Notes under the pieces: model-generated
What the model saw: the letters and a program-made list of their open reading frames with translations, nothing else
What the model was told of the DNA's origin: nothing
The model's database searches: none
Program-made: the position numbers and the translations under genes
IMG/VR virus record: IMGVR_UViG_3300016472_000211
Location: 1-35,027 of that record
DNA length: 35,027 nt
From: a virus
Lineage: Duplodnaviria > Caudoviricetes
Strand: one strand, 5' to 3'
Shown here: piece after piece, positions 2,144-34,398 of the stretch
Layout: each line of letters opens with the position of its first letter
Position numbering within the stretch: the first letter of the stretch is position 1

Positions 2144-2196
2144 CCCACTGACGAGGCCCCGGCGGGGGCCGAAACGCCGAGAGGCGTCTGGGACGC
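2144..2196 (+). ncRNA. Hammerhead ribozyme, type I (HHR1)
   Basis: Stem I CCCA(2144-47)/UGGG(2189-92); core CUGACGA(2148-54); stem II GGCCCC-GGCG-GGGGCC; GAAA(2171-74); stem III CGCC-GAGA-GGCG. Cleavage triplet GUC, cut after C2188. Confidence 0.9.
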
Positions 2197-2220
2197 ATGT
2201 TGCGCCACAATGGAGGACGA

Positions 2221-3126
2221 ATGGAACGAAAAGACTACATCGGCGGAACGGACGTGTCGGCGATCCTCGGTCTCAATAGCTACTCGACCATCGGCGAGGT
2301 CTGGCGCAGGAAGCGCGGCCTCGATGGCGAGGTCGAGGCCAACGAGCGCATGCGATGGGGCCTGCTGCTGGAGCCGGTCATCCTCGCCGAAACAGAGGCC
2401 CGCCTCGGCGTCGTCGGAGAACGGCCTGGGCTGATCCAGCATCCGTTCATCGAGCATCTGGCCGGCACGCCCGACCTGGTGTACCAGCGCGACGGTGAGT
2501 GCGTGGTCGTCGACGCGAAATGGAGCAAGGTGCGCGGCCTGGCCGCCGACGGCACCATCGCCGACGTCGACAATGGGAGCGTGCCCGGGTCGTGGTGGTG
2601 CCAGCTGCATCATTACGCCTGGCTGGTCGAGGAGACTCGCGGAGTGCCCTGCCGCCTCGGCCAGATTGCGGCGCTGACGCCCGATGGGCTGCGTATCATC
2701 GACGTGCCGATCGACATCGCCTGGTATCGGGAGTCTGTCTTGCCGCGACTGGATGCGTTCTGGGCCTCGGTGCAGGACGGCATCGAGCCCAGCCTGCCCG
2801 AGCCGGTCAAGGTTACGCCGCCGCCAGCGCTCGACGGCATCGACGACGCCGTCGCCGACTACCTGGCCGCGTCGGCTGCGATTGACGAGGCCGAGCAGAT
2901 GAAAGCCTCGGCTAAAGCCCGCATCGAGGAGGCCATAGCTGCCGCTGGTCATCCGGGCAAGTCGACTGCAGGAGGAGCGACCATCAGCTACATCGTCACC
3001 AAGGGCCGCGTCAGCCTCGACAGCAAGCGCCTGGAGGCCGACAACCCCGAGCTGTTCGCGTCGTACAGCAAGGTCGGGGCCTCGTTCTCGTCGATTCGCG
3101 TATTCGCCAAAGCTGAAAAAAGATGA
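2221..3126 (+). CDS. YqaJ-family (lambda exonuclease-like) recombination nuclease
   Basis: Motifs IGGTDVSAILGLNSY, WG..LEP.I, GTPD, DAK (E/D-x-K), QLHHY. GGAGG at 2212-2216. Confidence 0.9.
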   Translation: MERKDYIGGTDVSAILGLNSYSTIGEVWRRKRGLDGEVEANERMRWGLLLEPVILAETEARLGVVGERPGLIQHPFIEHLAGTPDLVYQRDGECVVVDAKWSKVRGLAADGTIADVDNGSVPGSWWCQLHHYAWLVEETRGVPCRLGQIAALTPDGLRIIDVPIDIAWYRESVLPRLDAFWASVQDGIEPSLPEPVKVTPPPALDGIDDAVADYLAASAAIDEAEQMKASAKARIEEAIAAAGHPGKSTAGGATISYIVTKGRVSLDSKRLEADNPELFASYSKVGASFSSIRVFAKAEKR

Positions 3127-3164
3127 AAAACGATATAGACTTCGGCGATGAGTGGTAGCACTAC
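3125..3164 (+). promoter_or_regulatory. Second copy of the rightward promoter
   Basis: A-tract, TAGACT (3136-3141), 17 nt, CACTAC (3159-3164). Shares TATAGAC.TCG and CACTA.CCAC.CA...GC.ACGCAAT with the 1891-1948 region. Confidence 0.55.
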
Positions 3165-3196
3165 CCACCCACGGCAACGCAATATCTCGGTCCTGA

Positions 3197-3249
3197 CCCA
3201 CTGATGAGTGCCCGGCAGGGGACGAAACACCGACAGGTGTATGGGATGC
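3197..3249 (+). ncRNA. Hammerhead ribozyme, type I (HHR2)
   Basis: Stem I CCCA(3197-3200)/UGGG(3242-45); core CUGAUGA(3201-07); stem II GUGCCC-GGCA-GGGGAC with one G.G mismatch; GAAA(3224-27); stem III CACC-GACA-GGUG. Triplet GUA, cut after A3241. Confidence 0.88.
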
Positions 3250-3283
3250 ACGGCGCATGGTGCGCCACACCACAGGAGGATAG

Positions 3284-4255
3284 ATGAGTAATGATTTGAC
3301 GCTGGTCCGCCGGACCATCAGCGACCTCAGCAGCGATTTCCAGGGCTCGGCACTGTTGCCGAAGCACTTGCGCAACCCGGCAGACATGGCACTGGTCATG
3401 CACATGGGTGACGTTCTCGGCATCGATCCGCGACAGGCGATCTGGTCGATGCACGTCATCGACGGCAAACCGAACATGAGCGCCGACCTGATGGCGGCAG
3501 TCTGCTCGCGCTCTCCGCTGTGCGAGTACCTGATGCCGACCGTGATGACGCCGACGCGCGTGGAGTACGCCGCGAAGCGGCGCGGCTGGCCGGCAGAGGT
3601 ACGCATGTCGTTCACCATGGAGGACGCGCAGCGCGCCGGACTCGCGGGTCGGGATAACTGGCGGAAGTACCCGATGGCGATGCTGAAGGCCCGCTGTCTC
3701 GCCATGATTTGCCGAGCGACCTGGCCGGACCTGCTGGCTGGCGTCTACGATCCGGACGAGCTTGCGCCGGCGTCAGCGTCTGAGTCCCCGGTGCGCGTCG
3801 AGCCGAGCCGAGCCGAGCCGAGCCGACTGGAGCCGACTCGGGCCGACTCTGACCTGGTCATCGAGGTCGGATCAGGAGCGTCCATCAAGGCGCAGGTCGC
3901 CGCACAGAAGCCGAAGCGCCGCGTCACCCAGGCACCGACGCCTGAGCCTGTCGTGGTCGAGCCGGCTGTCGAGCCCGACCAGGCCATCGTGGTCGAGCCG
4001 GTTGTCGAGCCCGAGCCCGAGCCCGACTATCGCGCCGACGTGCGGTCCAGTCTGCGTCGCATCGGCGCGACCATGACCGACCTCCTGGCCTACGCCGAGA
4101 ACGCCCTGGGGCGCCCTGTGGGGCCTCCCGACACCTGGTCCGTAGCTCAGGCGCGGTTCATCGCTCAGAAGCTGTACAACGGCTGGGCAAGCGGCCTGGC
4201 CGCGTGGATTAGCCAGCCGCCGAGCGACATCGACGCCGACCAGCTCCCCGAGTAA
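3284..4255 (+). CDS. recT: RecT/Red-beta-like single-strand annealing protein
   Basis: LGIDPRQAIWSMHVIDGKPNMSA...FTMEDAQRAGL...NWRKYPMAMLKARC...WPDLLAGVYDPDE with a Pro/Glu-rich linker. Paired with the YqaJ-type nuclease; AGGAGG RBS. Confidence 0.82.
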   Translation: MSNDLTLVRRTISDLSSDFQGSALLPKHLRNPADMALVMHMGDVLGIDPRQAIWSMHVIDGKPNMSADLMAAVCSRSPLCEYLMPTVMTPTRVEYAAKRRGWPAEVRMSFTMEDAQRAGLAGRDNWRKYPMAMLKARCLAMICRATWPDLLAGVYDPDELAPASASESPVRVEPSRAEPSRLEPTRADSDLVIEVGSGASIKAQVAAQKPKRRVTQAPTPEPVVVEPAVEPDQAIVVEPVVEPEPEPDYRADVRSSLRRIGATMTDLLAYAENALGRPVGPPDTWSVAQARFIAQKLYNGWASGLAAWISQPPSDIDADQLPE

Positions 4256-4312
4256 CCCGCCCCTGCCCTCCCAGGGGTCGAGCCCGATCCGTCGGCGGGT
4301 AGTCCGACGTTG

Positions 4313-4355
4313 TGCCGCCACGGGATACGCCCGTTCGACTCGGGCAGCGGCATCA
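4313..4355 (+). ncRNA. tRNA-like minihelix (acceptor stem plus T arm; no D stem or anticodon arm)
   Basis: UGCCGCC(4313-19)/AGCGGCA(4346-52) pair at 6 of 7 positions. T arm GCCCG-UUCGACU-CGGGC (4329-4345). 9-nt linker ACGGGAUAC. Ends in UCA, immediately followed by GGAGG. Confidence 0.55.
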
Positions 4356-4365
4356 GGAGGTAGAG

Positions 4366-4599
4366 ATGTACGGTGAGCGCATCATGTGGGCGCTGGTCCT
4401 CTACGCCGCCGGGTTCGCCTCGGCGGTCATCGTCGGCGCGCGAAAAGGCGAACAGGTGTCTGCGGGAGTGGCCGACGTGCTCGACACCTGCGACGAGCTC
4501 GCCCGCGCCGACCGGGTGGACTGCAAGCGATGCGTGCTGGCCGTGCCGCCTGGAGACGACCTGCGGGTCGCGCGGATGCCGCGGGCAGTCACCCCGTGA
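4366..4599 (+). CDS. Hypothetical membrane-anchored protein
   Basis: ATG after GGAGG (4356-60); N-terminal hydrophobic stretch WALVLYAAGFASAVIVGA. Confidence 0.65.
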   Translation: MYGERIMWALVLYAAGFASAVIVGARKGEQVSAGVADVLDTCDELARADRVDCKRCVLAVPPGDDLRVARMPRAVTP

Positions 4600-4853
4600 C
4601 CCCCGGCACCCGAGTCATCATCCTCCGAGGCGCCCGCGTCCAGTTCCGCGCCCGCGTCGAGCGCATCTCATGGCCGGGCGGGGACATCATCATGCACGAC
4701 GTCTGCCAGCTCGACGGGCGTGTCGTCCTGACCACCGGGTTCATCGACCCGATGCCGCTCGTGTTGCGCGCCAAGGCGCGGCAGCACACCGTGATTAGCT
4801 ACGGCGGGTACGGCGGCGAGATGACCGCGGAGGCCGACGAATGGGACCACTAG
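4596..4853 (+). CDS. Hypothetical protein
   Basis: GTGA overlap with the previous stop; non-shadow amino-acid composition. Confidence 0.6.
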   Translation: MTPGTRVIILRGARVQFRARVERISWPGGDIIMHDVCQLDGRVVLTTGFIDPMPLVLRAKARQHTVISYGGYGGEMTAEADEWDH

Positions 4854-4867
4854 GAATGGAGCATGCG

Positions 4868-5287
4868 ATGAAGACGAAACCGACCGACATGGACCACGAG
4901 GCCGCGCGGCTGTTCCGCGTAGAGGCCCGCATGCGGGCCTTCACTGAGTTCGCCCGGGGGACGGTGATATGCCTCGACTCGATGAGCGACGGAACCGGAT
5001 GTGTGACACTCGTAGGGGAGGGTACATACGAGGCTTTGGGACGGCCGGTCGCCATCGACACCGACGACCCCTCCACGGTCGGGTGCATGCTCGCGCAGGT
5101 CGAGCAGTCGCGGCCCGGGTTCGCGGTGAGCATCATCGACCGACTGGCGACGCTGCCGGACGAGCCAGACCGCAGGTTCGCTGTGCTCTCGGCGAACAAG
5201 CCGGGAGTGCAGGAGATGGTCACCGGCCCGACCCGCGGCGCCGCCCTGGTCGCAGCCATGAAGGCGCTCAAGGGGGCGGCGGCGTGA
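4868..5287 (+). CDS. Hypothetical protein
   Basis: GGAG upstream; fits the tight operon packing. Confidence 0.65.
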   Translation: MKTKPTDMDHEAARLFRVEARMRAFTEFARGTVICLDSMSDGTGCVTLVGEGTYEALGRPVAIDTDDPSTVGCMLAQVEQSRPGFAVSIIDRLATLPDEPDRRFAVLSANKPGVQEMVTGPTRGAALVAAMKALKGAAA

Positions 5288-5345
5288 ACATCCTGCACGA
5301 CAAGCCGTCGCCGGACAACGACGAGCCGGAGGATGAGGGCGAGTG

Positions 5346-5564
5346 GTGAGCCCCGCCGAACTGGCCTACCGCTGCGGCCTTCTCGCGCTGTCGTTCATTG
5401 CGTGCGGCGCGTACCTGCCGGCGATGGCGAGTGCGGGCGCATCCGTGCGGACTGGCGGCGCCGTGGAGACATCGCCCTCGCCGCCGCTCAACTGGCCACC
5501 ATCGCAGCCGGGCGCGCGAATCCGCCGCCGCCCGGGATTGGAGTGGACGCTCAATGACGCCTGA
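5346..5564 (+). CDS. Hypothetical protein with N-terminal hydrophobic segment
   Basis: GTGA coupling to a 21-aa micro-ORF at 5284-5349; hydrophobic GLLALSFIACGAYL. Confidence 0.45.
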   Translation: MSPAELAYRCGLLALSFIACGAYLPAMASAGASVRTGGAVETSPSPPLNWPPSQPGARIRRRPGLEWTLNDA

Positions 5565-5793
5565 AGAGCACGTTTCCGAAGCCCTCCGCGCCCGCGTGCT
5601 CGCCGTCGCCGGCGGCGCCGACGTCCACTTTGAACGCCTGGAATTGCCGGGCATCATCGCGCCCCGGCTTCACTTCCGCGTGTGGGTCGGGCCGCTGGGG
5701 AATGGGGCGAGGGCGTTCAACGGGAGCACGCTGCCTGAGGCGGTGGACCGAGCCGTGTTCTGTCTGACGCCGGACGACCCGCTGCCCTGGTGA
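5554..5793 (+). CDS. Hypothetical protein; last gene of the + strand operon
   Basis: GGAG upstream. Its stop abuts the stop of the convergent gene (TGATCA, 5791-5796). Confidence 0.6.
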   Translation: MTPEEHVSEALRARVLAVAGGADVHFERLELPGIIAPRLHFRVWVGPLGNGARAFNGSTLPEAVDRAVFCLTPDDPLPW

Positions 5794-6120
5794 TCACCGC
5801 CCTCGGGCCACCATCGCCCGCTCGACCGCTTGGGCGAGGTCGCCGCCCGGCAGCATGCAAGCCGCCCCGTGCGGCCCGTCGCAGTCGTGCTCCGTCACGA
5901 TGACGCAGCTGACGCCGTAACCTCGGGCCACGCGCGCCACGTCGAGGCAGGAGACGGACGCCGCCTCGCCGATGGTCTCCGGGGTGACGATGCAGTCGCA
6001 TCGCTCGGCGCGCAGTTCCGCAAGACCCGCTGTGAGGTCGTCCACGCGATATGTGACCGCGCCGGGCATCGTCCGGGCGTCGAGGTCGGAGACGCAGCCG
6101 GCGATGATGCAGAGGCGCAT
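5794..6120 (-). CDS. Degenerate CheY-like receiver-domain protein
   Basis: Pattern MRLCII ... AGLAELRAERCDCIV ... VARVARGYGVSCVIVT ... DLAQAVERAM follows receiver secondary-structure order, but the acceptor Asp and conserved Lys-Pro are not evident. Confidence 0.5.
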   Translation of the reverse strand: MRLCIIAGCVSDLDARTMPGAVTYRVDDLTAGLAELRAERCDCIVTPETIGEAASVSCLDVARVARGYGVSCVIVTEHDCDGPHGAACMLPGGDLAQAVERAMVARGR

Positions 6121-6121
6121 G

Positions 6122-6421
6122 CTATTCCGTGGCGCGTGGGGCCTGCGCTCTTGCCCGGGAAAGGGCAAGTTCAATGCGCGCGTCGGCCTCGCCGCGGTCG
6201 AGCTTGTCGTCGCGGAGGCGGTCCACCCGGCCTTCCAACGTCTCGACTCGGCGCCGCGTCTCGACGTGCGCGTGATTGACTGAGTCGATGGCCTGCAGCA
6301 TCGGCGTCAGCCTGCGCCCGAGCATCGAATCGACGAGCCAGACGAACCCGCCCATCAGCGCGACCATGATGCCCACGAGGGCTCCGAGCGTGCGAACAAG
6401 CTCGCCGATGTCGACCATCAT
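6122..6421 (-). CDS. Single-TM plus coiled-coil protein (lysis-cassette-like)
   Basis: TM LGALVGIMVALMGGFVWLV followed by heptad VETLEGRVDRL; ATGA coupled. Confidence 0.65.
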   Translation of the reverse strand: MMVDIGELVRTLGALVGIMVALMGGFVWLVDSMLGRRLTPMLQAIDSVNHAHVETRRRVETLEGRVDRLRDDKLDRGEADARIELALSRARAQAPRATE

Positions 6422-6726
6422 CTCGCCCCCTCCACGACGCCCCAGGCGACCACCGCGCCCGCCGCAGCGCCGATGCCGAACCACACCAGCGGAGACCATT
6501 CGTCACGAAACTCTACGAGCAGGTCGCGCGTCACCGCGAGTTCGCGCTCGGCGTCTGCGAGTGCGTGCACGGCGTCGCGGTCCTGGTCGGCGTGCTCGTA
6601 GGGGTAGATGAGCCCGGCGACCGGCACGGGGCAGCCAGCCTGCGCCGGCACGGGCCACGGGTCGCCGGTCATGTGCGCCGGGCACGCGCCCCACACGGCA
6701 GCGGCGAGGACGGGAGCGAGCATCAC
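6418..6726 (-). CDS. Secreted or lipoprotein-like protein with C-terminal TM (spanin candidate)
   Basis: Signal-like MMLAPVLAAAVWGAC; C-terminal LVWFGIGAAAGAVVAWGVV. Confidence 0.55.
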   Translation of the reverse strand: MMLAPVLAAAVWGACPAHMTGDPWPVPAQAGCPVPVAGLIYPYEHADQDRDAVHALADAERELAVTRDLLVEFRDEWSPLVWFGIGAAAGAVVAWGVVEGAR

Positions 6727-6917
6727 AGGCAGCCATCCCGCGCGCTGCGGACGGCGCGGATGCCGTCCTCGTACTCCTGCAGCGCGAGTCGCGCTTGTTC
6801 CGCCCGCAGCGCCGCACGCTCGACACGCTCTCGGGCCAGTTCGGCGCGGAGCTTCAGCAGGACGTGCCGGCGGTCGGCTTCGATCGCCAGGTCTACGATG
6901 CGCAGGAGGATGTTCAC
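6723..6917 (-). CDS. Small coiled-coil hypothetical protein
   Basis: GTG start coupled to an upstream 29-aa ORF (6914-7003); helical R/E/A/L-rich sequence. Confidence 0.55.
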   Translation of the reverse strand: MNILLRIVDLAIEADRRHVLLKLRAELARERVERAALRAEQARLALQEYEDGIRAVRSARDGCL

Positions 6918-7022
6918 GGCATCACGCCCGCGCCTAGGGCCGACCACGCGACGGGGAGGTCTGGCGGGTCGAACGGGGGCGGTGCTGTGGCGAGCGTGCT
7001 CATACGGCCATGATGCTACGAC

Positions 7023-7250
7023 TCAGCCCGAGCTGCCAGCCTGAGCCGCTCGGCCTGCGACGGCTCCGACGCAGCCTGAGATGCCAGCGACGACCGCGCC
7101 GAGCGTCGCGCCGTCTGCCTGGCCAGTGACGAGCGCCGCCACGCCCAGGACAGTGAGCCCGGCGATACCAGCGAGGCCGACGAGGACGGTGCGGCTCCAT
7201 CGCTCGCGCGACAGGACCAGGCGCCTCGGCTCTGCATGAGGGTCAGTCAC
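7023..7250 (-). CDS. Two-TM holin-like protein
   Basis: GTGA overlap with the fibre gene; two hydrophobic helices (VLVGLAGIAGLTVLGVAALV; TLGAVVAGISGCVGAVAG). Confidence 0.55.
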   Translation of the reverse strand: MTDPHAEPRRLVLSRERWSRTVLVGLAGIAGLTVLGVAALVTGQADGATLGAVVAGISGCVGAVAGRAAQAGSSG

Positions 7251-9526
7251 GGCCCGACAGACCCGCGCAATGCGCGCATCGTGTAGTCCACGGGCGCCTG
7301 ATTCCAGCCAGCACGCCACCGGATGGACGACACAGCGACCGCATCGACGTTGCCGCCGCTGCCGGGGCCTACGATGCGGCCGATGCGCAGCAGGCCCTCA
7401 TTGCCAGCCGTAAAGCTGGCCCATGGCGTCGAACTCAGGCCCGTCCAGATTCGGACTGGACCAGCCCAGACCTCAGTGTAGCTCGTGGCCGCCGTCGTGC
7501 CTGACGAGACACCATTCGCACATCGGATGGTGAGCCACAGACTGCGATTGGGGAGTCCGCCAGTCAGGACCAGCGAGGTCAGGCTCCCGGCCCCGCTCGA
7601 GGCCCAGAGGCCCGTCGAGGTCACCGCGGGGATGAACTGGTTTCCGCCGGCCGCCATGCAGAACGCGAACGCATGCACGATGTTCGCGCTCGTGCTGGCT
7701 GGCAGTTGGCACAGGACACGCAGCTCAAAAGACCCCGCGATGCTCATGCCCGTCACTGGAGCGAGCCCGCCGACTCCGGTGACGATGGTCTTGCTCATGT
7801 AGGCCGCGCCACTGTTCGCAGTCGGAGTCAGCAGGCGTGCGGTGTAGGCGCCAATCGTGGACGACGTGTCCGCGAGCGTCCCGGTCTTGGTCCACCCATC
7901 GGCCTCCATCGTGGTGCCGCTGGCGGCGCTCCACTCGTAATCCCACACGTCGGCGGCATAGGGCGATGAGCCGGGGAGGTTGGTCAGCAGCGAGCCGTCA
8001 ACCGCGGGCAGCCGGCCGGACCCGTCGAGGACCGGGACATTGCCCGAGCCCGTGCCCGTGTTGACGGTCGCCGCGGTGCCAAGCCCAAGCGTGGTGCGCG
8101 CCGTCGCTGCGTCTGCGTCGTCTAGGAGCGTGCGCGCAAACGCAGTCAGGGTCGCCAGCGCGCCGCTGCTCGCCCCGGTGTAGTAGGCGATTCGGTCGGC
8201 GGCAGGGGTCAGCCCGTTGATGGAGGTGAGCGGCGCTTTCAGCAGCGCGGCCCCATCCGCGTAATACGTCGTGGAGCCCGCAGCGTTCTGGAATCGGCCA
8301 TTGAGGATCGCACTGCTCACCGGCGCCGCAGCCAGTCCGGCCGAGTCGCTGATGAGCAGCCGCGTGGGCAGGGTGTTGTTCGTGATCGTGCTGCCCGGAT
8401 TGAACAAGCATCGGTCGAGGAGCAACAGACCCGTGAACCCCGCCGATACGGTCAGATTGCCCAGGGTGCAGCCGACGACGTAGATGGTTGCGCTGATTGC
8501 CCCGATGGTCAGGCCGCCCTCCAGCTGGCACTGCTCGATGCGATGCACACCGGCGCCGGTAGTCGAGATGGTGGTCAGCCCCTCGATCTGCAGCGACACG
8601 AGGCGCACGCGGACGGCATTGTTTCCGATGGTCAGACCGCGACCGCTGGACAGCGACGCAACAGTCCCGCCGAAGTCGCCAGCCTGCGGGCCGATGATGC
8701 TGATGTTGTTGCGTCCCGCCGGAATCGTGACCGTCGCGCCGCCGTAGGAGCCGGGGCCGACGATGACCTGATAGGCGGGTCCTGCGGTCGTCGCGTCGAT
8801 GGCCGTCTGGATGTCGCGAGTCGGCGAGCCGGCGATCGCCCCTGCCTGCGCATACTCGGAGAAGGTCTGCGACGGTAGCCGCTCGTATCGGTCGGTGAGC
8901 CCGGTGACCAGCGTCGTCCCAGCAGGGCCGACTGGCCCCTGGATACCCTGCTCGCCCTGGATACCCTGAGCGCCCTGGATACCCTGAGCGCCCTGCTCTC
9001 CCTGGATTCCCTGCTCACCCTGGATTCCTTGCTCGCCCTGGACGCCCTGCGGTCCCTGCTCGCCCTGGATACCCTGCGGTCCCTGGACACCGGCGACGCC
9101 CTCCAGATTGACCGACCAGCTCGCATAGGTGCCCGAGCCAGTGTGCTGCGACACGTCGACCACAAGCACGCCGGTCGCGGCGTCGTAGGACACCATCAGC
9201 CCGTGCATGTGATGGTCTAGGTCGTAGGCGATGATGATCGGCTGACCGACTGTGTAGTCGAGGTCCAGATCTACGGTCAGGGTCTGCGTCCCGTTCGCCA
9301 GGGTGAGCGAGGTCGTGCTCGTCGTGGCGTATCGGTCGCCATCGGCACCAGGAGTGCCGGCGATGCCCTGCTCACCCTGGACACCCTGAATGCCCTGGAC
9401 GCCCTGAATACCCTGGTGCCCCTGCTCGCCCTGGACGCCCTGGATTCCCTGCGGACCAGCAGGGCCGGCAGGCCCGGCAGGACCGACGCCGCCTCGGAGC
9501 GTGCTGTAGCCTGGTGACGTGGACAT
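7247..9526 (-). CDS. Collagen-like tail fibre / receptor-binding protein
   Basis: Two Gly-X-Y blocks (GIQGEQ repeats), beta-helix-like middle, fibre motif [20 protein letters not shown], beta-rich C-terminal domain. Confidence 0.82.
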
Positions 9527-9538
9527 GAGCCTCTCCTA

Positions 9539-9907
9539 TCAGGTGGGCCAGAACGTGGCGGTGATGGTGCAGGTCGAGCCGACATCGCCCGCATATGCGA
9601 GCGTCGTGGCTCCGGTGCCGTAGAGCCCGAGCGTCAGGCTCTCGCCGTGTGCGATCTCGACCGCGCCCTGTACCGTCGCAGGCGACTCGGTCGTCAGGTC
9701 GCTCCGACCAGAGATCCAGACGGACCCGGACGCGCTGGAGTTGCGCACGATCACCACGACGAGGCGCCGGTTGGCCGCCAGCGCCAGGCCAGACGCGAAC
9801 GAGAAGAAGTCATCGGACGCGGTCGTCGTCCAGTCGGTCGAGCTGATGGTGATCGGGAGGAGTGACGCGCACTCGCTGCCGTCGATGTCGGGGATGCTGC
9901 TTGGCAT
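9539..9907 (-). CDS. Small beta-rich virion-associated hypothetical protein
   Basis: ATG after GAGGT; motif VIVRNSSASGSVWI...IAHGESLTL; adjacent to the fibre gene. Confidence 0.6.
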   Translation of the reverse strand: MPSSIPDIDGSECASLLPITISSTDWTTTASDDFFSFASGLALAANRRLVVVIVRNSSASGSVWISGRSDLTTESPATVQGAVEIAHGESLTLGLYGTGATTLAYAGDVGSTCTITATFWPT

Positions 9908-9909
9908 GT

Positions 9910-10398
9910 CTACCTCGGGGGGATGAGTCGTTGTTCGCGTGCAAGACCGCTGGGGCGGAAGTCGATGTGCACGAACCGGCCGGTCACTAGGCCTGGATTG
10001 GCCACGTCCGGCGGATACCAGAACAGGCCGCCAGGTGGCAGTCGCCCGTCTCTCTGCGCTGCGTCGAGGCGGCGGAATACCTCGTCGCATGGCAGGCCCG
10101 ACGCCACGAAGTCGAGCGCGGCGCCCCGTCGCTCAGGTGGCTCGCGCATGAATCGCATGGTTGCCACCGCGCGCTGCACAGGTGGCAGGTGCATCGACGA
10201 TGCCCGGCCGCCCTCATTGTGCTCGGCAGGCCTGGCGCCGCTCAGGCAGCGCATCGGGACACCGAGCAGCGCTCGCGCCGGCTCCAGCACATGCACGGCG
10301 AGGTACTGATACCGCGCCAGCTCGCCGGCCGGGTCGTCAGGCCACCAGCCGCGCCCGAGCGTAAGCTCGCCGGCGCTAAAGTGCGGCGACACCATCAT
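9910..10398 (-). CDS. Peptidase M15-family endolysin
   Basis: SPHFSAGEL, LEPAR..LGVP..LSG.R, SSMHL, A.D and FVHID Zn-peptidase motifs. Confidence 0.8.
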   Translation of the reverse strand: MMVSPHFSAGELTLGRGWWPDDPAGELARYQYLAVHVLEPARALLGVPMRCLSGARPAEHNEGGRASSMHLPPVQRAVATMRFMREPPERRGAALDFVASGLPCDEVFRRLDAAQRDGRLPPGGLFWYPPDVANPGLVTGRFVHIDFRPSGLAREQRLIPPR

Positions 10399-27045: not shown

Positions 27046-28463
27046 CAGCCCTGACCTACGACGGCAGATGGAGTCAGGATACCAGACGGCGGAATGGCAG
27101 CAGGCCGGACACGCTGACCTCGCGGTCGCGCGCTCGGGTCCTCGGCTGGCATCTCGACCGCCGCTCGCACCGCGTCGCGCACGGCGTCGTCAGGTCGGAG
27201 CAGGTCCGCAGACACGAGGCTCGGCAGGACGCTCAGATAGCGCACGAACGCCTCCGACGCGAGCCCGGCCGCCTTCATGCGCGGCATCAGCGCATCCGGC
27301 ACGTTAGGCCCGAACTGCCAGCGGACAGCGCGGCCAATGTAGCTCTGCATCCCTCGGCAGATGTCGTCATCGACCGCCTGCGCCGCATCATGCGCCGCGC
27401 TCATCTGCGTCTCAGAGAGCGAGTACGACCCCGAGGCGTTGGCGGTGCCGAGCATGAGCCATTGCGCGCTGGCCACGCTGAGGATCTGCCGGTCACGCGC
27501 GTCGATGATGGCCTGTACCTCGGCCAGGTTGCCCAGCTCTCCGCCGAACGTCGCCAGCTCAATCCATGGCGGGACCATCAGATAACTCTGGTCATGCGAG
27601 ATGTAGAGCTGCAGCGTCTGCTGGTATTTCTCCAGCTCGGCCTGTACGAACGCAGGAGTCTCGGGGTTGCCGAACTGGCGCGACACGTCGGGCAGGAGTC
27701 GAGCGACCGGCGTAGGCGTCGCCCATCGACGGACGCCCGCGATCAGCTGCTGCTGGAGCGTTACCACATCCCGGTACAGCGGCTCGACCGAGCGGAGCAT
27801 GCCCTCGCCCGAGTAATCGTCGTGCGCCACTGCGCCGCAGACGTACACCAGCAGCTGCGACGCCGGGATGACGCGGAACGTCCCATATCCAGCGGTCGGA
27901 CGCTGCTCGACTGCGGCCAGCCGCCCGTCGCCATCGACAATCCAGCGCGCAACCGAAGTCGCGTCACGCGGCAGGAGCGGCGTGTACCACACACCGCCGA
28001 CCTGTACCGGGACCATCTCCCAGACCGCGAAGCCCTCTAGGTGCGCTTGCAGCAATTGGCGCAGCACCACCTGCCACTCGGTGCCGAGCGGACTCTGCGC
28101 ACCGATACCGAGACACGCGCGGATGTGGGCGGCGTACTGCGCGGCCTGCGGCGAGTCGTCGGCTGCAGTCACGGACCAGGTCGCAATCTCGCAGAGTCCG
28201 CGCCAGGCAGTCACACCAGACTGGACGCTCCAGTGCGTCATAGCGCGCCGGAATGCGGCGATGCGGTCGGGGTTGGCCTGCAGGCGCCGATTGTGCTCGT
28301 AGGCAGAGCCGTAGATGCCCGCGCCACTGTAGCCGCCGCCGACACCCATCTCGGTGCTCGGGCGCTCAGTCGCGTCTCGCAGACGCGCGCTCTCGGCTGT
28401 GCTGACGACTCCGTACATGGGCGCAGGGTACAGCCGCGCACCCGATGCTACAAGTGGCAGCAT
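27045..28463 (-). CDS. Portal protein (Mu gp29/DUF935-like)
   Basis: GFAVWEMV, GEGMLRSV, ATPTPVA, R.RQIL, LMLG...GSYSLSET. Directly after TerL. Confidence 0.82.
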   Translation of the reverse strand: MLPLVASGARLYPAPMYGVVSTAESARLRDATERPSTEMGVGGGYSGAGIYGSAYEHNRRLQANPDRIAAFRRAMTHWSVQSGVTAWRGLCEIATWSVTAADDSPQAAQYAAHIRACLGIGAQSPLGTEWQVVLRQLLQAHLEGFAVWEMVPVQVGGVWYTPLLPRDATSVARWIVDGDGRLAAVEQRPTAGYGTFRVIPASQLLVYVCGAVAHDDYSGEGMLRSVEPLYRDVVTLQQQLIAGVRRWATPTPVARLLPDVSRQFGNPETPAFVQAELEKYQQTLQLYISHDQSYLMVPPWIELATFGGELGNLAEVQAIIDARDRQILSVASAQWLMLGTANASGSYSLSETQMSAAHDAAQAVDDDICRGMQSYIGRAVRWQFGPNVPDALMPRMKAAGLASEAFVRYLSVLPSLVSADLLRPDDAVRDAVRAAVEMPAEDPSARPRGQRVRPAAIPPSGILTPSAVVGQG

Positions 28464-28496
28464 CGATGCTGCTATCGGCAGACTATCAGCAGGCTA

Positions 28497-29909
28497 TCAA
28501 CGCGAGTCGCGCTCCTGGCCGATATGCCGTGACGGCGCAGCGCGCACCGGAGCGATGACCGACGCGAGCGCCAGCTCTGGCAGATGCCACAGCACGCGCC
28601 GCGCGCCGTATCGCAGAGCATCGACCGCGTGGTCGCTGATGCCGTCCTTCATCGGCTCCTCGCGACCCCTGACATCCCACCGATACGCGAGCAGGGACCG
28701 ATGCAGCGATCGGCCTGTCTGGTCGCGCGCGCCTTCCTCGGCGAGTCGAGACGACACCAGCAGGCGGCGGCGCTCCATCGCCAGTCGCATCCGATTCAGC
28801 GAGGCGACGACCGAGCGGCGCTCGGGGATCGTCTCGACGACCGGCCGCAGCCCGAGCCCCTCGGGCGGATGCAGCGAGATGATGTCGAGGTCCGAGTGCC
28901 CAGTCTGCGCCGATGTCGCCGCGCCAGCTGGGTCCGCGACGACCTCGTCGATGGGGATACGACCGCCAGCGATGCGACGCGGAGCGGCATCACGAGCGAT
29001 GCGCGCGCAGAACGCGCCGACCGTGATGTGCGTCCCGGTGCTGTACCACTCGCGCATGACGACCCACCGGCCGCGCTCGGCGTCCTCGGCGAGCAGGAGC
29101 GCGTGCGGGTCCCGTGCGCCGAGGTCCATCGCGAGCACAGTCCGCGTCTGCGAGTAGTCCGGTGACCAGTCGGTGAGCACGCCATCGGGAGCCAGTCGCG
29201 CGACGTACTCCTCGACGATCTGCCCCTCTGGCGCGTACTCCTCGCCATCGAGCATGGCCCGCGCGTGACGCTCAGTCATCGCCGCGCGCAGCCGCGATTC
29301 GTACTCGGGATCGTTGTGCGTGTTGTCGCGGGTCTTGGGCCGCCAGGTCAGACCGCCCGACTTCGCGGCCTCGCTGACCCACCAGGTGCTCACAGGCAGG
29401 CCCGACGCTACGACGAGCGGCGAGCACACTCGCCCGGTAAGGTCGACCGCCTGCACACGGGTCCGCTCCTGCCAGACCGTCCAGTACCGCGAGTCGATCT
29501 GCTGGCACTCGTCGGCGATGATGGCGTGCAGATTCATGCCCTCGATTGGGCTGCCACCGATGCGAGGGTCGCCGGACGTATCCAGGTGACGCAGCCGGAC
29601 GACCGAACCGGACGGCCACCGGAACTCGGTGTCGGTCGCTCGCCACTCGCCGCCTGCGCTGCGTGCCAGCGACGAGATAATCGGGAGATGGATGTCGCGC
29701 AGGCTCGGATAGGAGTCCATCACGAGCGCGATTTCTGCGCCCGGCCTGGTCGCGGCGAGCAGGCACGCAGCGGTGCCGACCAGGACCGACTTGCCCGACC
29801 CCTTGCCGCCAGCCCATGCGTAGCAGCCGCCACTCTGCCGCAAGATGCAGCGCAGAGCCTCGGCCTGCCAGGGCAACGGCTGGATGTCAGCGAGGGAGAG
29901 CGCCGCCAT
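28497..29909 (-). CDS. terL: Terminase large subunit
   Basis: PLPWQ, Walker A GGKGSGKS, Walker B IIADE, nuclease motifs AMDLG, ADPAG and DHAVDALRYG. Confidence 0.93.
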   Translation of the reverse strand: MAALSLADIQPLPWQAEALRCILRQSGGCYAWAGGKGSGKSVLVGTAACLLAATRPGAEIALVMDSYPSLRDIHLPIISSLARSAGGEWRATDTEFRWPSGSVVRLRHLDTSGDPRIGGSPIEGMNLHAIIADECQQIDSRYWTVWQERTRVQAVDLTGRVCSPLVVASGLPVSTWWVSEAAKSGGLTWRPKTRDNTHNDPEYESRLRAAMTERHARAMLDGEEYAPEGQIVEEYVARLAPDGVLTDWSPDYSQTRTVLAMDLGARDPHALLLAEDAERGRWVVMREWYSTGTHITVGAFCARIARDAAPRRIAGGRIPIDEVVADPAGAATSAQTGHSDLDIISLHPPEGLGLRPVVETIPERRSVVASLNRMRLAMERRRLLVSSRLAEEGARDQTGRSLHRSLLAYRWDVRGREEPMKDGISDHAVDALRYGARRVLWHLPELALASVIAPVRAAPSRHIGQERDSR

Positions 29910-30258
29910 GGTCTGTCAGTACCTGCATGATGAGCCACGCGACATCGATGCACTCGACAGGCGCCGTGCGTCCCTCCATGCGTCCCTGGGTCGCATACAG
30001 CGCGGCGTCGAGCAGTTCCTGCAGGCAGTCGATGTAGGCCGCCCGGCCGTTGTTGGTGCACAGTTCCGTGCCGTAGTGAGCGCGGCCTAGCTCTCGCCGA
30101 GCGCGGAGCATAGACTGCAGCTGGCGCCGCTGCTGCTCTGTCCGCTGGGTCGTGTCGACGTAGACCATGAGCGCATCGGTCACGCTGCGACCGTCGCCAG
30201 TCGGCGCTGGCTCTTCGATGGCCGCGTGTGCCACCAGGTCCCTGAGGTCACCTTCCAT
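29887..30258 (-). CDS. All-alpha NTP pyrophosphohydrolase (MazG-like) candidate
   Basis: R...G..HYG..L...NGR...D..QELLD...Y acidic helix motif; GGAG RBS. Confidence 0.55.
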   Translation of the reverse strand: MEGDLRDLVAHAAIEEPAPTGDGRSVTDALMVYVDTTQRTEQQRRQLQSMLRARRELGRAHYGTELCTNNGRAAYIDCLQELLDAALYATQGRMEGRTAPVECIDVAWLIMQVLTDHGGALPR

Positions 30259-30658
30259 CGCTGCTCCCTCCTTCGCCGGCCAGGCGCTCCAGCACAGTCC
30301 GGACGCCGTCCTGTGGACTCGGCGCGGATACCTCGACGCGGGACTCGACGCGGCGTCCGTAGTCGGCCGGGTGTCGGCGCTCGAGGAGCCACGCTGCGGC
30401 CTGCCACTGGCCACCCTCGGCTGCCTGCCTGATGACCTGCAGGGCGCGCGAGATGCAGTCCGCGTCCGCCCTTTTTAGGTCCGCCAGGAGCGCCGCAAAT
30501 GGCGCCTCGCCAGCCTCGCCACGCTGTCGCCACTCACGTAGGGTCGATGCTCCAATGCCGACAGACTGTGCAGCGGCCTCCCACGTCGCGCCCAACTCGA
30601 CCGCCTCAATGAGGCCCGACCTCACTGCCGGCCGTAGCTTAGTTGGCCTCGCCATCAT
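30248..30658 (-). CDS. Terminase small subunit-like HTH protein
   Basis: MARPTKL, HTH (AAAQSVGIGASTLREW), WQAAAWLLERR.P..YG; upstream of TerL. Confidence 0.72.
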   Translation of the reverse strand: MMARPTKLRPAVRSGLIEAVELGATWEAAAQSVGIGASTLREWRQRGEAGEAPFAALLADLKRADADCISRALQVIRQAAEGGQWQAAAWLLERRHPADYGRRVESRVEVSAPSPQDGVRTVLERLAGEGGSSDGR

Positions 30659-31050
30659 CGACCCCAGTACGTGTGCTTGATCCGACCGAGCACGCGCCGC
30701 CCACCACGAGCAGCGCATGAGCCGGGTCTATCGTATCCGCCACAGTACCATAGAGCGTCACGTGCCCACTCGGGCACGTCGAGGGTGTCGGTCACGAACC
30801 GCACGCCGAGCTCGACGTGCCGCCATGTCAGCGGCCAGCGGCAGCCGTGCGCGTGCTGACCGGGCGACCAGAGCGCGGTCCAGAGCGTGCCGTCGTAGCG
30901 CGCCCACCCGCGTCGGTCGAGCCGGGCCCGGGTGCGCACGACCTGGAGCACGACCGCGCCGTCGCGGTAGTCGCGGCCGGACTCGGCGCACGCTGTATCG
31001 GCTGCTCCGATGATGAGTAGCAGGGACTGGACGATGCCGAGCGCGGTCAT
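30655..31050 (-). CDS. SleB-like cell wall hydrolase (lytic transglycosylase)
   Basis: Signal/TM N-terminus, then AES (catalytic Glu candidate), G.AVVLQVV.TR, TL...LWSPGQH, ALWY. Confidence 0.6.
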   Translation of the reverse strand: MTALGIVQSLLLIIGAADTACAESGRDYRDGAVVLQVVRTRARLDRRGWARYDGTLWTALWSPGQHAHGCRWPLTWRHVELGVRFVTDTLDVPEWARDALWYCGGYDRPGSCAARGGRRVLGRIKHTYWGR

Positions 31051-31152
31051 GCCGTCACGACCCGGTACAGCAGCCCCAGCGCGCCGATCGCGAACACGAT
31101 ACTCATGGCTCGAACCTCCTGACGCCGCTCCCGCTCCCTGACGAGGCCATGG

Positions 31153-31422
31153 TCAGCGGCATGATGCACCTGCGTCGCTCGCATCCTCGACCGTCAGATT
31201 CACGTCGATCCACCGCATGATGGACATCCCATCGGGACGCTCTGGATTCAATTGAGCGCGCCACATGTGCGCCACAGCCCCAGCGACGATGTCCTCGCCG
31301 AAGCGCGTCCACCGCGCGAGAACGTGCCGGGCGTAGTCGTCGACCGTCACGCCGGGCTGCGAGCCCCCGGGTGCCGAGGCCATCGCGTGCGAGGCGGCGA
31401 ATGTCATGCGCTGGCGCTGCAT
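31153..31422 (-). CDS. Hypothetical protein
   Basis: Coding-like composition; start uncertain (31422 or 31407). Confidence 0.5.
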   Translation of the reverse strand: MQRQRMTFAASHAMASAPGGSQPGVTVDDYARHVLARWTRFGEDIVAGAVAHMWRAQLNPERPDGMSIMRWIDVNLTVEDASDAGASCR

Positions 31423-31432
31423 TGCCGCTTGC

Positions 31433-31642
31433 TCATGGTGCGGCCCTCTCGTCCCCGAACTTGTGCGGGCCATCGTGAAGCGCCACACGGATGCACCCGG
31501 CCTCGTCCGACTGGCGCCGATGGTCGCAGCATCGCGCGTGCTGTGGGCGCGAGATGCCGCAGGGGCCATCGTGCGCGAACTCGCGGTTGCAGATGATGGT
31601 CACCCCGTCGCCGAGGTCGATGAACTTCATGCAGTTCGCCAC
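31433..31642 (-). CDS. Small Cys/His metal-binding protein with a duplicated motif
   Basis: CNREFAHDGPC and CIRVALHDGPH; GGAGG upstream of the GTG at 31642. Confidence 0.6.
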   Translation of the reverse strand: MANCMKFIDLGDGVTIICNREFAHDGPCGISRPQHARCCDHRRQSDEAGCIRVALHDGPHKFGDERAAP

Positions 31643-31724
31643 TGCTACCCTCCCCACTGCAGCCCGCGGGCTACAAAGCTGTTGATTTCGGTGACGCGCA
31701 CCGTGCGCCGGCAGACTTCCCTAC

Positions 31725-32276
31725 TCATGGCTCGAACCACCTGACGCCAGTGAGCCGCCATCCGATGCTATCGACCTCGGACGCTCGCACCGTGCGCCGG
31801 CCGACGCGAGCCACATGCTCAGCGAGTAGGGCAGGACTGATGCGGTAGCAGTGGTCCCAGGCCTGCAGGACGATGAGCGCCAGGCCGGCGCATCCGGCGA
31901 CCAGCTGCAGCTCTCGCCACTGCCGGGGCTGGAGCGCACCGCCCTCGACGCCTCGGCCCGATGGGTCGACGCCAGAGTCCCACGAGTCCGGCCCCGAGTG
32001 CGTCTTGGCCTCCAGCGCAATGTGCCGCCCGCCACCATCGTGGCCCACGAAATCGACGCCCTGATACCCGTCCCAGGCGGCGCGGAACAGGTGTCGGCCA
32101 CGGACATCGACCGACACCCGGCCGAGCACTGAGACGGGCGCTCCGACGCGGCGCATGTACGCCACGCCGTCACGGGCAAGAGTCTGGTGGTATGCGTCGA
32201 GCCAGTCCTCCAGACGCTCACCGCGTGCTCGGGCCGCGCGACCGACCTGGCTACGATTCAGGAGCGGCAGGGTCAT
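31725..32276 (-). CDS. recU: RecU-like Holliday junction resolvase (PD-(D/E)xK)
   Basis: RGERLE, A...R...PV.V, VDFVG, ALEAK and L.P.Q...L motifs follow the RecU layout. Confidence 0.72.
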   Translation of the reverse strand: MTLPLLNRSQVGRAARARGERLEDWLDAYHQTLARDGVAYMRRVGAPVSVLGRVSVDVRGRHLFRAAWDGYQGVDFVGHDGGGRHIALEAKTHSGPDSWDSGVDPSGRGVEGGALQPRQWRELQLVAGCAGLALIVLQAWDHCYRISPALLAEHVARVGRRTVRASEVDSIGWRLTGVRWFEP

Positions 32277-32800
32277 CCGCTCACCTGCCCCGCGAGCCCG
32301 CTCAGGTCATCCCGCGCCGATACAGGCGCCCCGCTCTCGATGATTGCGCGGGCGGCATCAAGTTCGGCCTGCAGCCGCGCGGATTCGGCCCGCAGCGCGT
32401 CGCGCTCGGCCTCGGCTGCGTCCAACCGGCGGATTAGTTCATCCGTCGCATTGGGCAGCGAGTCGACCCCGGCCCGTTTCATCGCGACCAGTGTTGGCCC
32501 GATGACGCGCTCGATTTCGGCGCGGTTGTGCGCGTCGCGTGCCTCGGCCTCTTCGGCCCGGCGCTCGGCATCGCGCAGGCGCTCGTCCGCCACCGCGTCC
32601 GCCTGCGGGTAGAGGACGGTGAACGGGCCGAACTCCTCGACGTAGCTGATCGGTAAGGCGTCGGCGCCGCGCGTGTCGTCGTCGCCACTGACATCACACG
32701 ACGGGTCGTACAGCACCCGCGCCTTTTCCGTTCCCCGCAGCCAAATCGCCCCGTCACGGTCGGCGAGCACATCGCCGAGCTTTCCGTCTCGGATGTTCAT
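32273..32800 (-). CDS. Hypothetical protein with coiled-coil C-terminus
   Basis: GDVLADRDG.IW...FGPFTVL N-terminal domain; GAGG RBS. Confidence 0.65.
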   Translation of the reverse strand: MNIRDGKLGDVLADRDGAIWLRGTEKARVLYDPSCDVSGDDDTRGADALPISYVEEFGPFTVLYPQADAVADERLRDAERRAEEAEARDAHNRAEIERVIGPTLVAMKRAGVDSLPNATDELIRRLDAAEAERDALRAESARLQAELDAARAIIESGAPVSARDDLSGLAGQVSG

Positions 32801-32844
32801 GCAGCCTCGCTTTCGTTGCCGACCTGCCGGACCGCCCTGATCAC

Positions 32845-32871
32845 GCACGGCCGCCCCGTTTCGGCCTGTCA
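32845..32871 (-). other. Decayed or partial third copy of the type II hammerhead
   Basis: Directly after a stop codon: ACAGGCCGAAACGGGGC (17 nt) is identical to the 5' part of HHR3/HHR4, but no CUGANGA follows. Confidence 0.55.
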
Positions 32872-33084
32872 AAAGTCAGCGCACTCGACGACCGCGCGCA
32901 GCGCGGCCCGTGCGGCGTCGTCGTCCTCGAATCCCTCGACCTCGGTCCCGCGGCCCGTGTTCCTGATGACAACGTCTGCTTCGGGGAACTCGGCGATGAT
33001 GGCATCCTCGAGCGCTTCCACGTTGGCGCCGTCGTTCAGAGTGTCGAGGTCGATACGGATGGTCTTGTTGCTCTTGGTCTGCAT
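32869..33084 (-). CDS. Small acidic hypothetical protein (71 aa)
   Basis: Asp/Glu-rich; starts 50 nt downstream of the HHR3 cut site. Confidence 0.7.
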   Translation of the reverse strand: MQTKSNKTIRIDLDTLNDGANVEALEDAIIAEFPEADVVIRNTGRGTEVEGFEDDDAARAALRAVVECADF

Positions 33085-33105
33085 GGTGATTTCTTTCTTG
33101 GCTGT

Positions 33106-33156
33106 GGCCATCATCAGGCGCCGCATCACGGCGCGACGGGTTGCCCCGTTTCGGCC
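33106..33156 (-). ncRNA. Hammerhead ribozyme, type II (HHR3)
   Basis: Minus strand: GGCC-GAAA-CGGG-GCAA-CCCG-UC / GCGCCG-UGAUG-CGGCGC-CUGAUGA-U-GGCC. GUC triplet, cut after C at 33135; extra U between A9 and G10.1. Confidence 0.85.
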
Positions 33157-33158
33157 TG

Positions 33159-33341
33159 TTACATCCCGACGTGGGCCGCGACGATGTCCGTGATCATGCG
33201 CCGCGCGTCAGAATTGGTGAAATAGTGCAGCACGAGCTGCATATCGTCGGCCTTGTCAGGCTCTCCAGCCGCGCGGAGAGCCTTGATGCGGAGTTTCATC
33301 GTAGCCTTGAGGGCGGGAGGCATCGTCGGCTGCTTGTTCAT
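33159..33341 (-). CDS. Small hypothetical protein (60 aa)
   Basis: AAGGA upstream; its TAA lies 2 nt before HHR3. Confidence 0.7.
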   Translation of the reverse strand: MNKQPTMPPALKATMKLRIKALRAAGEPDKADDMQLVLHYFTNSDARRMITDIVAAHVGM

Positions 33342-33362
33342 CGTCCTTGCCTTTCGTCGGTG

Positions 33363-33430
33363 GGCGCTTCGTGCGCCGTTCATGTGCAAAGAATACCCGG
33401 GCCCTTCATCAAAGACAACAAGAAATTGTC
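33363..33430 (-). promoter_or_regulatory. Promoter cassette B: operator, sigma70 promoter, leader hairpin
   Basis: GACAA-N7-TTGTC (33414-33430); TTGTCT (33418-13), 17 nt, TATTCT (33395-90); hairpin GGCGC-ACGAA-GCGCC (33377-63). Confidence 0.75.
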
Positions 33431-33446
33431 ATGCCGGATACGATTC

Positions 33447-33659
33447 CTACTCACCCAATTCCGGCAGGACTTCCGCAATCCTCGCGGCGAGCTGCGGCGG
33501 CATCGGACGGATGCCGTTGACCGTCCGGTGCAGGTTGCCCTTGTCCATGCCGAGGGCCGCTGCAAGGTCGGAGAGGCTGCGCGGCCCGGGGCTCTGCGCG
33601 GTCTTGCGGGCGCTGAGGGCTTCGGCGATGCGCTGGGCCAGGGTCGGGTGGTCGGTCAT
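33447..33659 (-). CDS. XRE-family HTH regulator
   Basis: SLSDLAAALGMDKGNLHRTVNGIRPMP...RIAEVL. Confidence 0.82.
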   Translation of the reverse strand: MTDHPTLAQRIAEALSARKTAQSPGPRSLSDLAAALGMDKGNLHRTVNGIRPMPPQLAARIAEVLPELGE

Positions 33660-34024
33660 GCGTCTGCCGCGCCGGTCCAGTCGCCGCACTCATGGCAGTG
33701 CGTGTCCTCGGGGCCAAAGAACCGATGTCCGCCCTTGGCGCAGTTCCACCCATCATCGACTACCCACGCGGCCGCCGCGTTGAAGTGGCAGCACGGGTCT
33801 TCGCCGGTGCCCGACAGAAGACCGCCATCGGCCAGCGTGTCCCATTCTCCGGGCACTACCAGTCCCAGCCGGGACGCGGCCGTCCACGGGGTTTCGCCGT
33901 TGCGCGTCTCGACGTCGATTTGCACTGCAGTTCCGGTCGGGCCGAACGCCTCTGCGCCGTCCGCGTCCGCGTTGCAGGTCATCCAAAGGCTGCCGTGGCT
34001 GTCGAAGAAGTAGGTTTCCATCAT
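33656..34024 (-). CDS. Hypothetical protein with C-terminal Cys/His finger
   Basis: AGGAGG RBS; CAKGGH...CHECG. Confidence 0.7.
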   Translation of the reverse strand: MMETYFFDSHGSLWMTCNADADGAEAFGPTGTAVQIDVETRNGETPWTAASRLGLVVPGEWDTLADGGLLSGTGEDPCCHFNAAAAWVVDDGWNCAKGGHRFFGPEDTHCHECGDWTGAADA

Positions 34025-34398
34025 GTCCTCCTGCGTTGTAGACGCCCGGCGCCATGCCGAGCGGACATCAATCTGTTGGCCATCATCAGGCGCCGCATCA
34101 CGACGCGACGGGTTGCCCCGTTTCGGCCTGTTACGCCGACGTATGCGCCCATCTCGCCAGAGAGTTCGATGTCGCCGAGCGAACCGAACACCTCGGCCAG
34201 CGCCTCATTGAGCAGCTCGCCGCTGCCTGCAACATAGAATTCCGCAGTCTCGACGGAAACAAGGTGGTGCACGCCAGCAGCGCGCTCGACCGCGCAATGC
34301 CGGATAACAGCGTGCGGGAAGGTGGAGCGCAGGGAGTCGAGCCCTGCCTGCTCGGACTTGCTGATGGGGCTGAGGTCGGACATCTTGGGGAAGTTCAT
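34021..34398 (-). CDS. Hypothetical protein whose reading frame runs through HHR4
   Basis: AAGGAG RBS. The frame continues through 34128-34078 to an ATGA overlap at 34021-34024. Confidence 0.6.
   Translation of the reverse strand: MNFPKMSDLSPISKSEQAGLDSLRSTFPHAVIRHCAVERAAGVHHLVSVETAEFYVAGSGELLNEALAEVFGSLGDIELSGEMGAYVGVTGRNGATRRVVMRRLMMANRLMSARHGAGRLQRRRT
34078..34128 (-). ncRNA. Hammerhead ribozyme, type II (HHR4)
   Basis: 57 of 58 nt identical to HHR3 (34077-34134 vs 33105-33162). The single change turns a stem I C-G pair into U.G. Cut after C at 34107. Confidence 0.85.

Follow-up and report, generated by a model that had tools for sequence, protein, structure and literature searches.

Hammerhead ribozymes in repeated gene cassettes of a tailed phage encoding RecE and RecT: candidate processing sites for early transcripts

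The DNA analyzed here, referred to as the window, is the whole of IMG/VR virus record IMGVR_UViG_3300016472_000211, a phage genome of 35,027 bp assigned to the Caudoviricetes. A sequence-only reading of this genome had proposed that four hammerhead ribozymes punctuate its early transcription units and process their messages. We describe these elements (HH1 to HH4) and the repeated cassettes that contain them, in which the slot upstream of the ribozyme may be filled, swapped, or empty and in which cleavage would give the downstream gene a constant leader.

Four hammerheads in two families

When both strands of the window were scanned for the hammerhead core plus three stems, exactly four elements were obtained, compared with no match in 1000 dinucleotide shuffles, which confirms the positions and cut sites that had been proposed (Table 1). 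As had also been described, the plus arm carries two type I elements and the minus arm two type II elements, and the structural module contains no hammerhead by either the core scan or covariance models. All four elements have the sequences that define the hammerhead class (CUGANGA, GAAA, and NUH, with three stems), and the earlier claim of a full core holds with the amendment that HH3 and HH4 each contain one extra U between A9 and G10.1. A U at this position raised trans-cleavage 3–4-fold in the (+) hammerhead from chrysanthemum chlorotic mottle viroid (CChMVd; PMC3705267); because it is tolerated in a viroid hammerhead, the extra U is no sign of decay. The join of both record ends is spanned by an IMG/VR contig that is 99.9% identical to the window, indicating that the genome is circular and, consequently, that all four hammerheads fall inside 5,167 bp across the join, with the minus-strand pair positioned downstream of the replication genes.

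Table 1. Hammerheads, cassette components, and gene blocks in the window (aa, amino acids; nt, nucleotides)
Feature	Position	Strand	Remarks
Putative promoter P1	1900..1928	+	-35 at 1900-1905, 17-nt spacer, -10 at 1923-1928; A-rich tract upstream
Gene A, cassette 1	1979..2143	+	54 aa; without family; stop codon flush with HH1
HH1, type I hammerhead	2144..2197	+	scan span 2144-2192; predicted cut after 2188 (GUC)
Gene B, cassette 1	2221..3126	+	YqaJ/RecE-like exonuclease; PF09588 E 1e-12, phrog_434 E 2e-46
Putative promoter P2	3136..3164	+	copy of P1; gene A slot empty
HH2, type I hammerhead	3197..3250	+	scan span 3197-3245; predicted cut after 3241 (GUA)
Gene B, cassette 2	3284..4255	+	RecT-like annealing protein; phrog_561 E 8e-28
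Putative promoter P3	34444..34483	-	-35 at 34472-34467, -10 at 34449-34444; duplicated at P4
Gene A, cassette 3	34021..34398	-	125 aa in window strain; frame crosses HH3
HH3, type II hammerhead	34078..34129	-	scan span 34128-34078; predicted cut after 34107
Gene B, cassette 3	33656..34024	-	122 aa; without family
Helix-turn-helix (HTH) protein	33451..33659	-	PF13560 E 1e-4, below curated cut-off
Putative promoter P4	33390..33429	-	-35 at 33418-33413, -10 at 33395-33390
Gene A, cassette 4	33159..33341	-	60 aa; without family; stop 2 nt before HH4
HH4, type II hammerhead	33106..33157	-	scan span 33156-33106; predicted cut after 33135
Gene B, cassette 4	32869..33084	-	71 aa; without family
Dead 5' type II ribozyme fragment	32855..32871	-	immediately 3' of the cassette 4 gene B stop
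Recombination genes	~1.9 to 7 kb	+	YqaJ/RecE and RecT genes
Replication genes	1840 to 10	-	HTH gene, replication gene, DnaC
Block beyond the join		-	small unknown genes, resolvase, terminase, Mu-like portal and head genes, tail genes

In a direct-repeat search, HH4 was 98% identical to HH3, and HH1 was 81% identical to HH2, which lies 1053 bp away. Covariance models of both families, which the four known elements match by construction, found no further intact copies in the window. An Rfam search, proposed earlier as a check, gave no match in the window at the gathering score for Hammerhead_1, Hammerhead_II, or Hammerhead_3, nor for any other ribozyme class; the best sub-threshold score was 21.3 bits versus 48.5, and the single weak match was to Hammerhead_3 (E 3.6). 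Family members in six other loci score up to 32 bits, compared with Rfam cut-offs of 34–37.

Pattern scans of IMG/VR identified 36 stretches with the type I form and 27 with the type II form, representing 32 and 25 distinct contexts, respectively, with those of the window included. In the type II family, all 325 of 325 cells are paired, each of the 25 sequences is fully paired, and all six stem I pairs vary on both sides. An A before stem II and a U at position 1.7 are present in 25 of 25 members, even though the search pattern left both free, and the commoner type II form that lacks the extra U retains them in 95 of 95 (A) and 91 of 95 (U1.7) sequences. HH3 itself has a 6-bp stem I, U1.7, and the A before stem II. 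These are the positions of an AU Hoogsteen contact described in fast hammerheads (PMC11875169, PMC2632901).

In the type I family (26 sequences after near-duplicates were dropped), 99.4% of cells are paired and six pairs vary on both sides. Loop II is GGCR in 25 of the 26, and in both HH1 (GGCG) and HH2 (GGCA) it can pair with the 3' tail. The third of these loop-tail pairs, from the last base of loop II to a tail whose bases were fixed by the pattern, is standard in 23 of 26 sequences; this variable pair is G-C in HH1 and A-U in HH2. The conserved positions in both families may reflect a tertiary contact of stem I with stem II. The 4-bp pseudoknot between loop I and the 3' tail in the type II consensus of Perreault et al. 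was not found: runs of four occur in 3 of 25 members, and the loop and tails of the window's type II elements show no pairing over 4 bp. Based on the covariation, the conservation of tertiary-contact positions, and the published cleavage of similar prophage clusters (PMC3088659), it is well supported that the four elements would act as ribozymes that cut early transcripts.

Cassettes, slots, and ribozyme remnants

The repeated unit consists of a promoter-like sequence, a leader, a small gene (gene A), the hammerhead, a 30–80-nt leader with a Shine-Dalgarno site, and a second gene (gene B). Two duplicated units were identified by the direct-repeat search, the type I pair and the type II pair with its duplicated upstream blocks, and the presence of one type per arm would be explained if two cassette families had been acquired separately and each had been duplicated in tandem. 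The distances from cut to start codon (32, 42, 82, and 50 nt for HH1, HH2, HH3, and HH4, respectively) match those given earlier. Three relatives whose capsid proteins are 52–53% identical (G002–G004) have a promoter, leader, small gene A, hammerhead, hairpin, Shine-Dalgarno site, and gene B in this order.

Across the two families, the ribozyme is followed by a Shine-Dalgarno site and a start codon in 30 of the 32 type I contexts and in 23 of the 25 type II contexts. On the upstream side, an open reading frame (ORF) stops within 9 nt of the ribozyme in 23 of 32 type I contexts, 19 of them flush, and in 11 of 25 type II contexts, one of which is an alternative frame in the window. Where a locus has several hammerheads, all copies are on one strand (18 of 18 loci). 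When 61 flanking proteins were tested (80 found, near-duplicates dropped), 48 had no PHROG family, 7 matched a family of unknown function, and 6 matched a named family, which in two cases was RecT.

The duplicated promoters that had been described upstream of the ribozymes hold up as duplications, and P1 is in exact register with the near-consensus sequences TTGACA-17-TAGGGT and TAGACA-17-TAAGGT before the same leader start in relative G003, but a consensus promoter scan called none of P1–P4, with P1 falling below threshold. On the minus strand, an inverted repeat lies over the -35 box at both P3 (34466–34483) and P4 (33412–33429) and is a possible operator; the HTH protein encoded between P3 and P4 is a candidate regulator or repressor of these promoters. 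Terminator-like matches in the window were at chance level only. The 122-aa product of gene B in cassette 3 gave a best ESM Atlas score of 0.82, which is a lead only.

The content of the gene A slot differs among strains. Gene A of cassette 1 is flanked by an 8-nt direct repeat (1952–1959 and 2134–2141), and one contig joins 1951 to 2134, so that this gene has been lost via the repeat and HH1 has been kept. Among the differences listed, this contig has none in 40 nt of HH1 versus 22 in 252 nt upstream (each strain comparison lists 40 differences, beside 175 and 118 more, and the sameness within HH1 refers to those listed). Its layout is the same as that of HH2 in the window, in which the promoter is followed by about 25 nt, the ribozyme, and no slot gene. 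In a 99% identical strain, gene A before HH4 is replaced by 314 other bases. Two other strains carry variants of HH2, of which G3210C closes the sole stem II mismatch and C3234A alters loop III. Neither the 13 nt that are duplicated within HH4 in one contig nor weak joints with a short side of 21–30 letters were used as evidence.

Inactive remnants of both types were also identified. The first 17 bases of a type II element, read from 32871 to 32855, remain behind gene B of cassette 4 (stop at 32869). In the closest relative found (G001; terminase 80% and capsid 86% identical; 95% complete), the covariance model recognized, ahead of a gene, a type I copy that has lost its 5' part and that the core patterns alone missed. 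Such dead fragments appear to mark past exchanges.

In the window strain, cassette 3's gene A remains open through HH3, and its stop overlaps the start codon of the next gene. In another strain, a one-base difference causes this gene to stop before HH3, and two of its homologs terminate close to residue 88, a little short of the ribozyme position. The earlier statement that each element cuts shortly before a start codon is right, but a rule that cuts lie between genes is broken by the ORF at 34398–34021. The read-through allele is present in more than one contig and so is not a single assembly error. In this allele, cleavage would leave a non-stop message, and translation may block HH3 cleavage.

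With regard to the wider setting, the sequencing runs that best match the window come from metagenomes of freshwater and seawater. Among the runs listed, no RNA run contained more than a small share of the region, and the single run with an RNA label that was compared is probably DNA. Searches by terminase or capsid turned up no cultured relative, and database matches to recT reach only about 30%. The type I pattern matched two genomes, one of which is a Planctomycetales metagenome-assembled genome that is not evidence for the host of this phage, and a metagenome scan returned one locus. No integrase was recognized among the 47 ORFs scanned in the whole window. Besides a terminase and RecE/RecT, the genome encodes a Mu-like portal and protease, and its tail fibre gene (7247–9526, minus strand) contains two collagen-like repeat blocks.

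Directly 3' of the recT stop, a structured intergenic stretch (4253–4352, plus strand) is shared with G001 (L002 5970–6070). It consists of a hairpin with four compensatory pairs followed by 39 identical bases, in which an acceptor-like stem closes a tRNA-like T-arm. The stretch contained no tRNA by ARAGORN and gave no Rfam match, and matches to its pattern elsewhere in IMG/VR resemble the ends of tRNA or transfer-messenger RNA. It is possibly a processing signal or a tRNA remnant.

Predicted consequences of cleavage

Intact motifs, selection on the fold, placement, and slot exchange are observed in the DNA; from these we infer the uncoupling and the fixed leader. In the reading that we favor as probable, cutting of the transcript by the hammerheads would provide gene B with an unchanging 5'-OH leader regardless of the slot's content, with gene A uncoupled from it. 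Cleavage would occur during transcription of the early message; the gene A message would leave with a hairpin and a cyclic phosphate at its 3' end, the gene B message would begin with a 5'-OH and a hairpin, and the two would decay and be translated independently. The constant leader and ribozyme could double as crossover points for the exchange of slot genes, possibly via the phage RecE/RecT. More tentatively, and with the odds against it, the units can be seen as a natural plug-and-play expression system in which promoter, leader, and ribozyme form a fixed socket, RecE/RecT swaps accessory genes through the repeats, and cleavage insulates the downstream gene, here the recombinases, in an integron-like array of RNA parts.

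The main argument for a role at the 5' end comes from a comparison of six short sequences. The leaders predicted to remain once HH1 and HH2 have cleaved are similar to the primary leader in ribozyme-free relatives, hairpin included, which suggests that cleavage would recreate the ancestral 5' end following the insertion of material behind the promoter.

The sequence-only reading had placed the recombination genes at the center of the system, and the comparison with other loci does not support this. Only two of the four window hammerheads precede recE or recT, and both G001 and a metagenome contig (L008) have cro, one promoter, and contiguous recE–recT, without a ribozyme or a second promoter. 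When 81 recT loci were scanned, hammerheads were found in 4, which are a near-identical contig and three others (3 of 80 other loci), compared with totals of 0–2 in shuffles; covariance models added solely the G001 fragment. RecT is gene B in two of these three others, so a hammerhead lies directly before recT in 2 of 80 other loci. Among the 29 other type I copies, recT lies downstream of 2. Ribozyme placement before recT recurs within the phage clade and is not required.

Several points weigh against the proposed processing. The cores were preset by the search patterns, so only the free positions are informative, and the family members come partly from related phages, so the counts are not independent. 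Folding in context makes the closing stems improbable (0.03 for HH1 stem I, about 0.2 for HH2, and 0.01 or less for stem II of HH3 and HH4) under a thermodynamic model that ignores the hammerhead tertiary core. In the window strain, a reading frame crosses HH3. The recE–recT operon of the closest relative functions as a ribozyme-free counterpart in which the cut is dispensable. Finally, RNase E acts poorly on a 5'-OH substrate by way of its 5' sensor and cuts many 5'-OH RNAs by direct entry (PMC4191395); given direct entry, protection by the 5'-OH is not assured, and a stabilized leader would depend on the host nucleases.

Other roles for the elements can be weighed against the same observations. 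Cleavage of glmS lowers expression (PMC6765202), and a cut that similarly shortens the life of the gene A or gene B message, as for glmS in RNase J hosts, could act as a timer that limits early or toxic proteins to a pulse. The slot genes are small, unknown, first-transcribed ORFs, and the 48 of 61 flanking proteins without a PHROG family fit this idea, but hairpins are predicted at the ends of both products and the empty slot of HH2 offers no gene A to time, making a timer unlikely. Slot exchange, dead fragments, and the patchy distribution among recT loci (3 of 80) would also be expected if the elements were kept mainly as repeated DNA for gene swapping, with cleavage incidental or selfish. 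Recombination needs identity, however, yet the copies diverge with compensatory changes (HH1 and HH2, 81%) and the bases of the tertiary contact are kept; we give this explanation little weight.

Two further possibilities concern the released RNA. HH2 and the slot-less HH1 variant would free a short non-coding piece (about 70 nt with an empty slot) that might serve as a small RNA decoy or regulator, but this piece is mostly ribozyme body and the same leader in relatives simply precedes gene A, so that we regard such a role as very unlikely. Slightly lower still is the probability that the same-type pairs free monomers, one of 1053 nt that includes recE and one of 972 nt from the minus strand, whose ends assemble into a hammerhead again and are ligated by the ribozyme or RtcB to give circular mRNAs. 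Each arm does hold two ribozymes of the same type with identical closing stems, which would make the monomer ends complementary, but single copies exist (G004), an internal promoter lies inside each monomer, and circular or spliced products of prophage clusters were sought and none found by Perreault et al. (PMC3088659).

Other carriers and known systems

Hammerheads of these types are also present in cultured phages. Streptomyces phage Satis (MH576962.1) has three matches, and the two that were checked are full type II hammerheads that carry the extra U and lie between annotated genes. These two (L154 4003–4058 and 4314–4369) are unannotated and flank gene 248, with the third match elsewhere; phages Quantum, Kradal, and EhyElimayoE give the same blastn match as the Satis hammerheads. 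By scan, Caulobacter phage S2B (MN857473.1) contains one type III and two type I motifs (L155 590–647, 2497–2563, and 3083–3143), which sit among small genes beside the terminal repeat and integrase. Within 3.3 kb of one viral contig there are five type II elements, all with the extra U (L133 548–3867).

RiboJ insulators, credited to Lou et al. in 2012, reportedly cut between the promoter and the ribosome-binding site and leave a constant hairpin leader. Unlike RiboJ, the units in the window are natural and their upstream piece is usually protein-coding, and insulation here is a proposal.

The closest precedent is the work of Perreault et al. (2011; PMC3088659), which reports that prophages often carry several hammerheads around a single gene or a short block of genes, that long transcripts may in this way be processed to mRNAs of gene length, and that similar clusters cleave in vitro and in Escherichia coli. 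The RNA processing proposed for the window is well supported by fold selection and such published analogs, but as an idea it is not new, having been put forward in that study. As in those prophages, several hammerheads of mixed type lie among variable small genes, with the type II architecture and loop-tail contacts, and the defining arrangement of the clusters, sense-strand hammerheads that flank variable single genes or short blocks, is found here. In contrast to those clusters, recE and recT are two of the B genes here, exchange and emptying of slots are documented at strain level, and the type II copies have the extra U after A9 and no 4-bp pseudoknot. The window's two families may already be in Dataset S1 of that study; a string search of its supplements gave no match, and gapped alignments would hide matches.

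Bacterial self-cleaving ribozymes occur in the vicinity of phage genes and of small ORFs that are not conserved (Roth 2014 and Weinberg 2015, via PMC6765202; PMC6155905). These share the setting of the window, and differing stability or translation of the pieces has been suggested for them, but unlike in that setting, the window has no other ribozyme class. In Desulfovibrio, cleavage is reported for three type II hammerheads that lie close to phage-like genes (PMC8782182). The CChMVd (+) hammerhead has an extra base at the same core position and is a viroid type III element (PMC3705267), whereas the window's copies belong to a type II phage family with U there. In haloviruses HF1 and HF2, a hammerhead precedes an early helicase gene and a mapped 5' end lies 3 nt or less from the cut site; they resemble the window in that a ribozyme shortly precedes the start of an early gene for DNA metabolism and differ in their salt-adapted core variant, single copy, and archaeal host (PMC3088659).

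In the literature covered (Roth 2014 and Weinberg 2015 aside), no paper was found in which natural phage ribozymes serve cassette exchange or insulation, nor any on ribozymes in Satis. Reviews name the role of bacterial and phage self-cleaving ribozymes as open (PMC6765202 and PMC6155905). To these systems, the present genome adds slots that are filled, swapped, or empty at strain level, a ribozyme-free sister operon, two sub-threshold families that are both missed at Rfam thresholds, and cultured carriers. The slot states in near-identical strains, the ribozyme-free recE–recT relative, and the read-through allele provide natural controls, and the cultured carriers Satis and S2B make the role of these ribozymes testable in laboratory strains.

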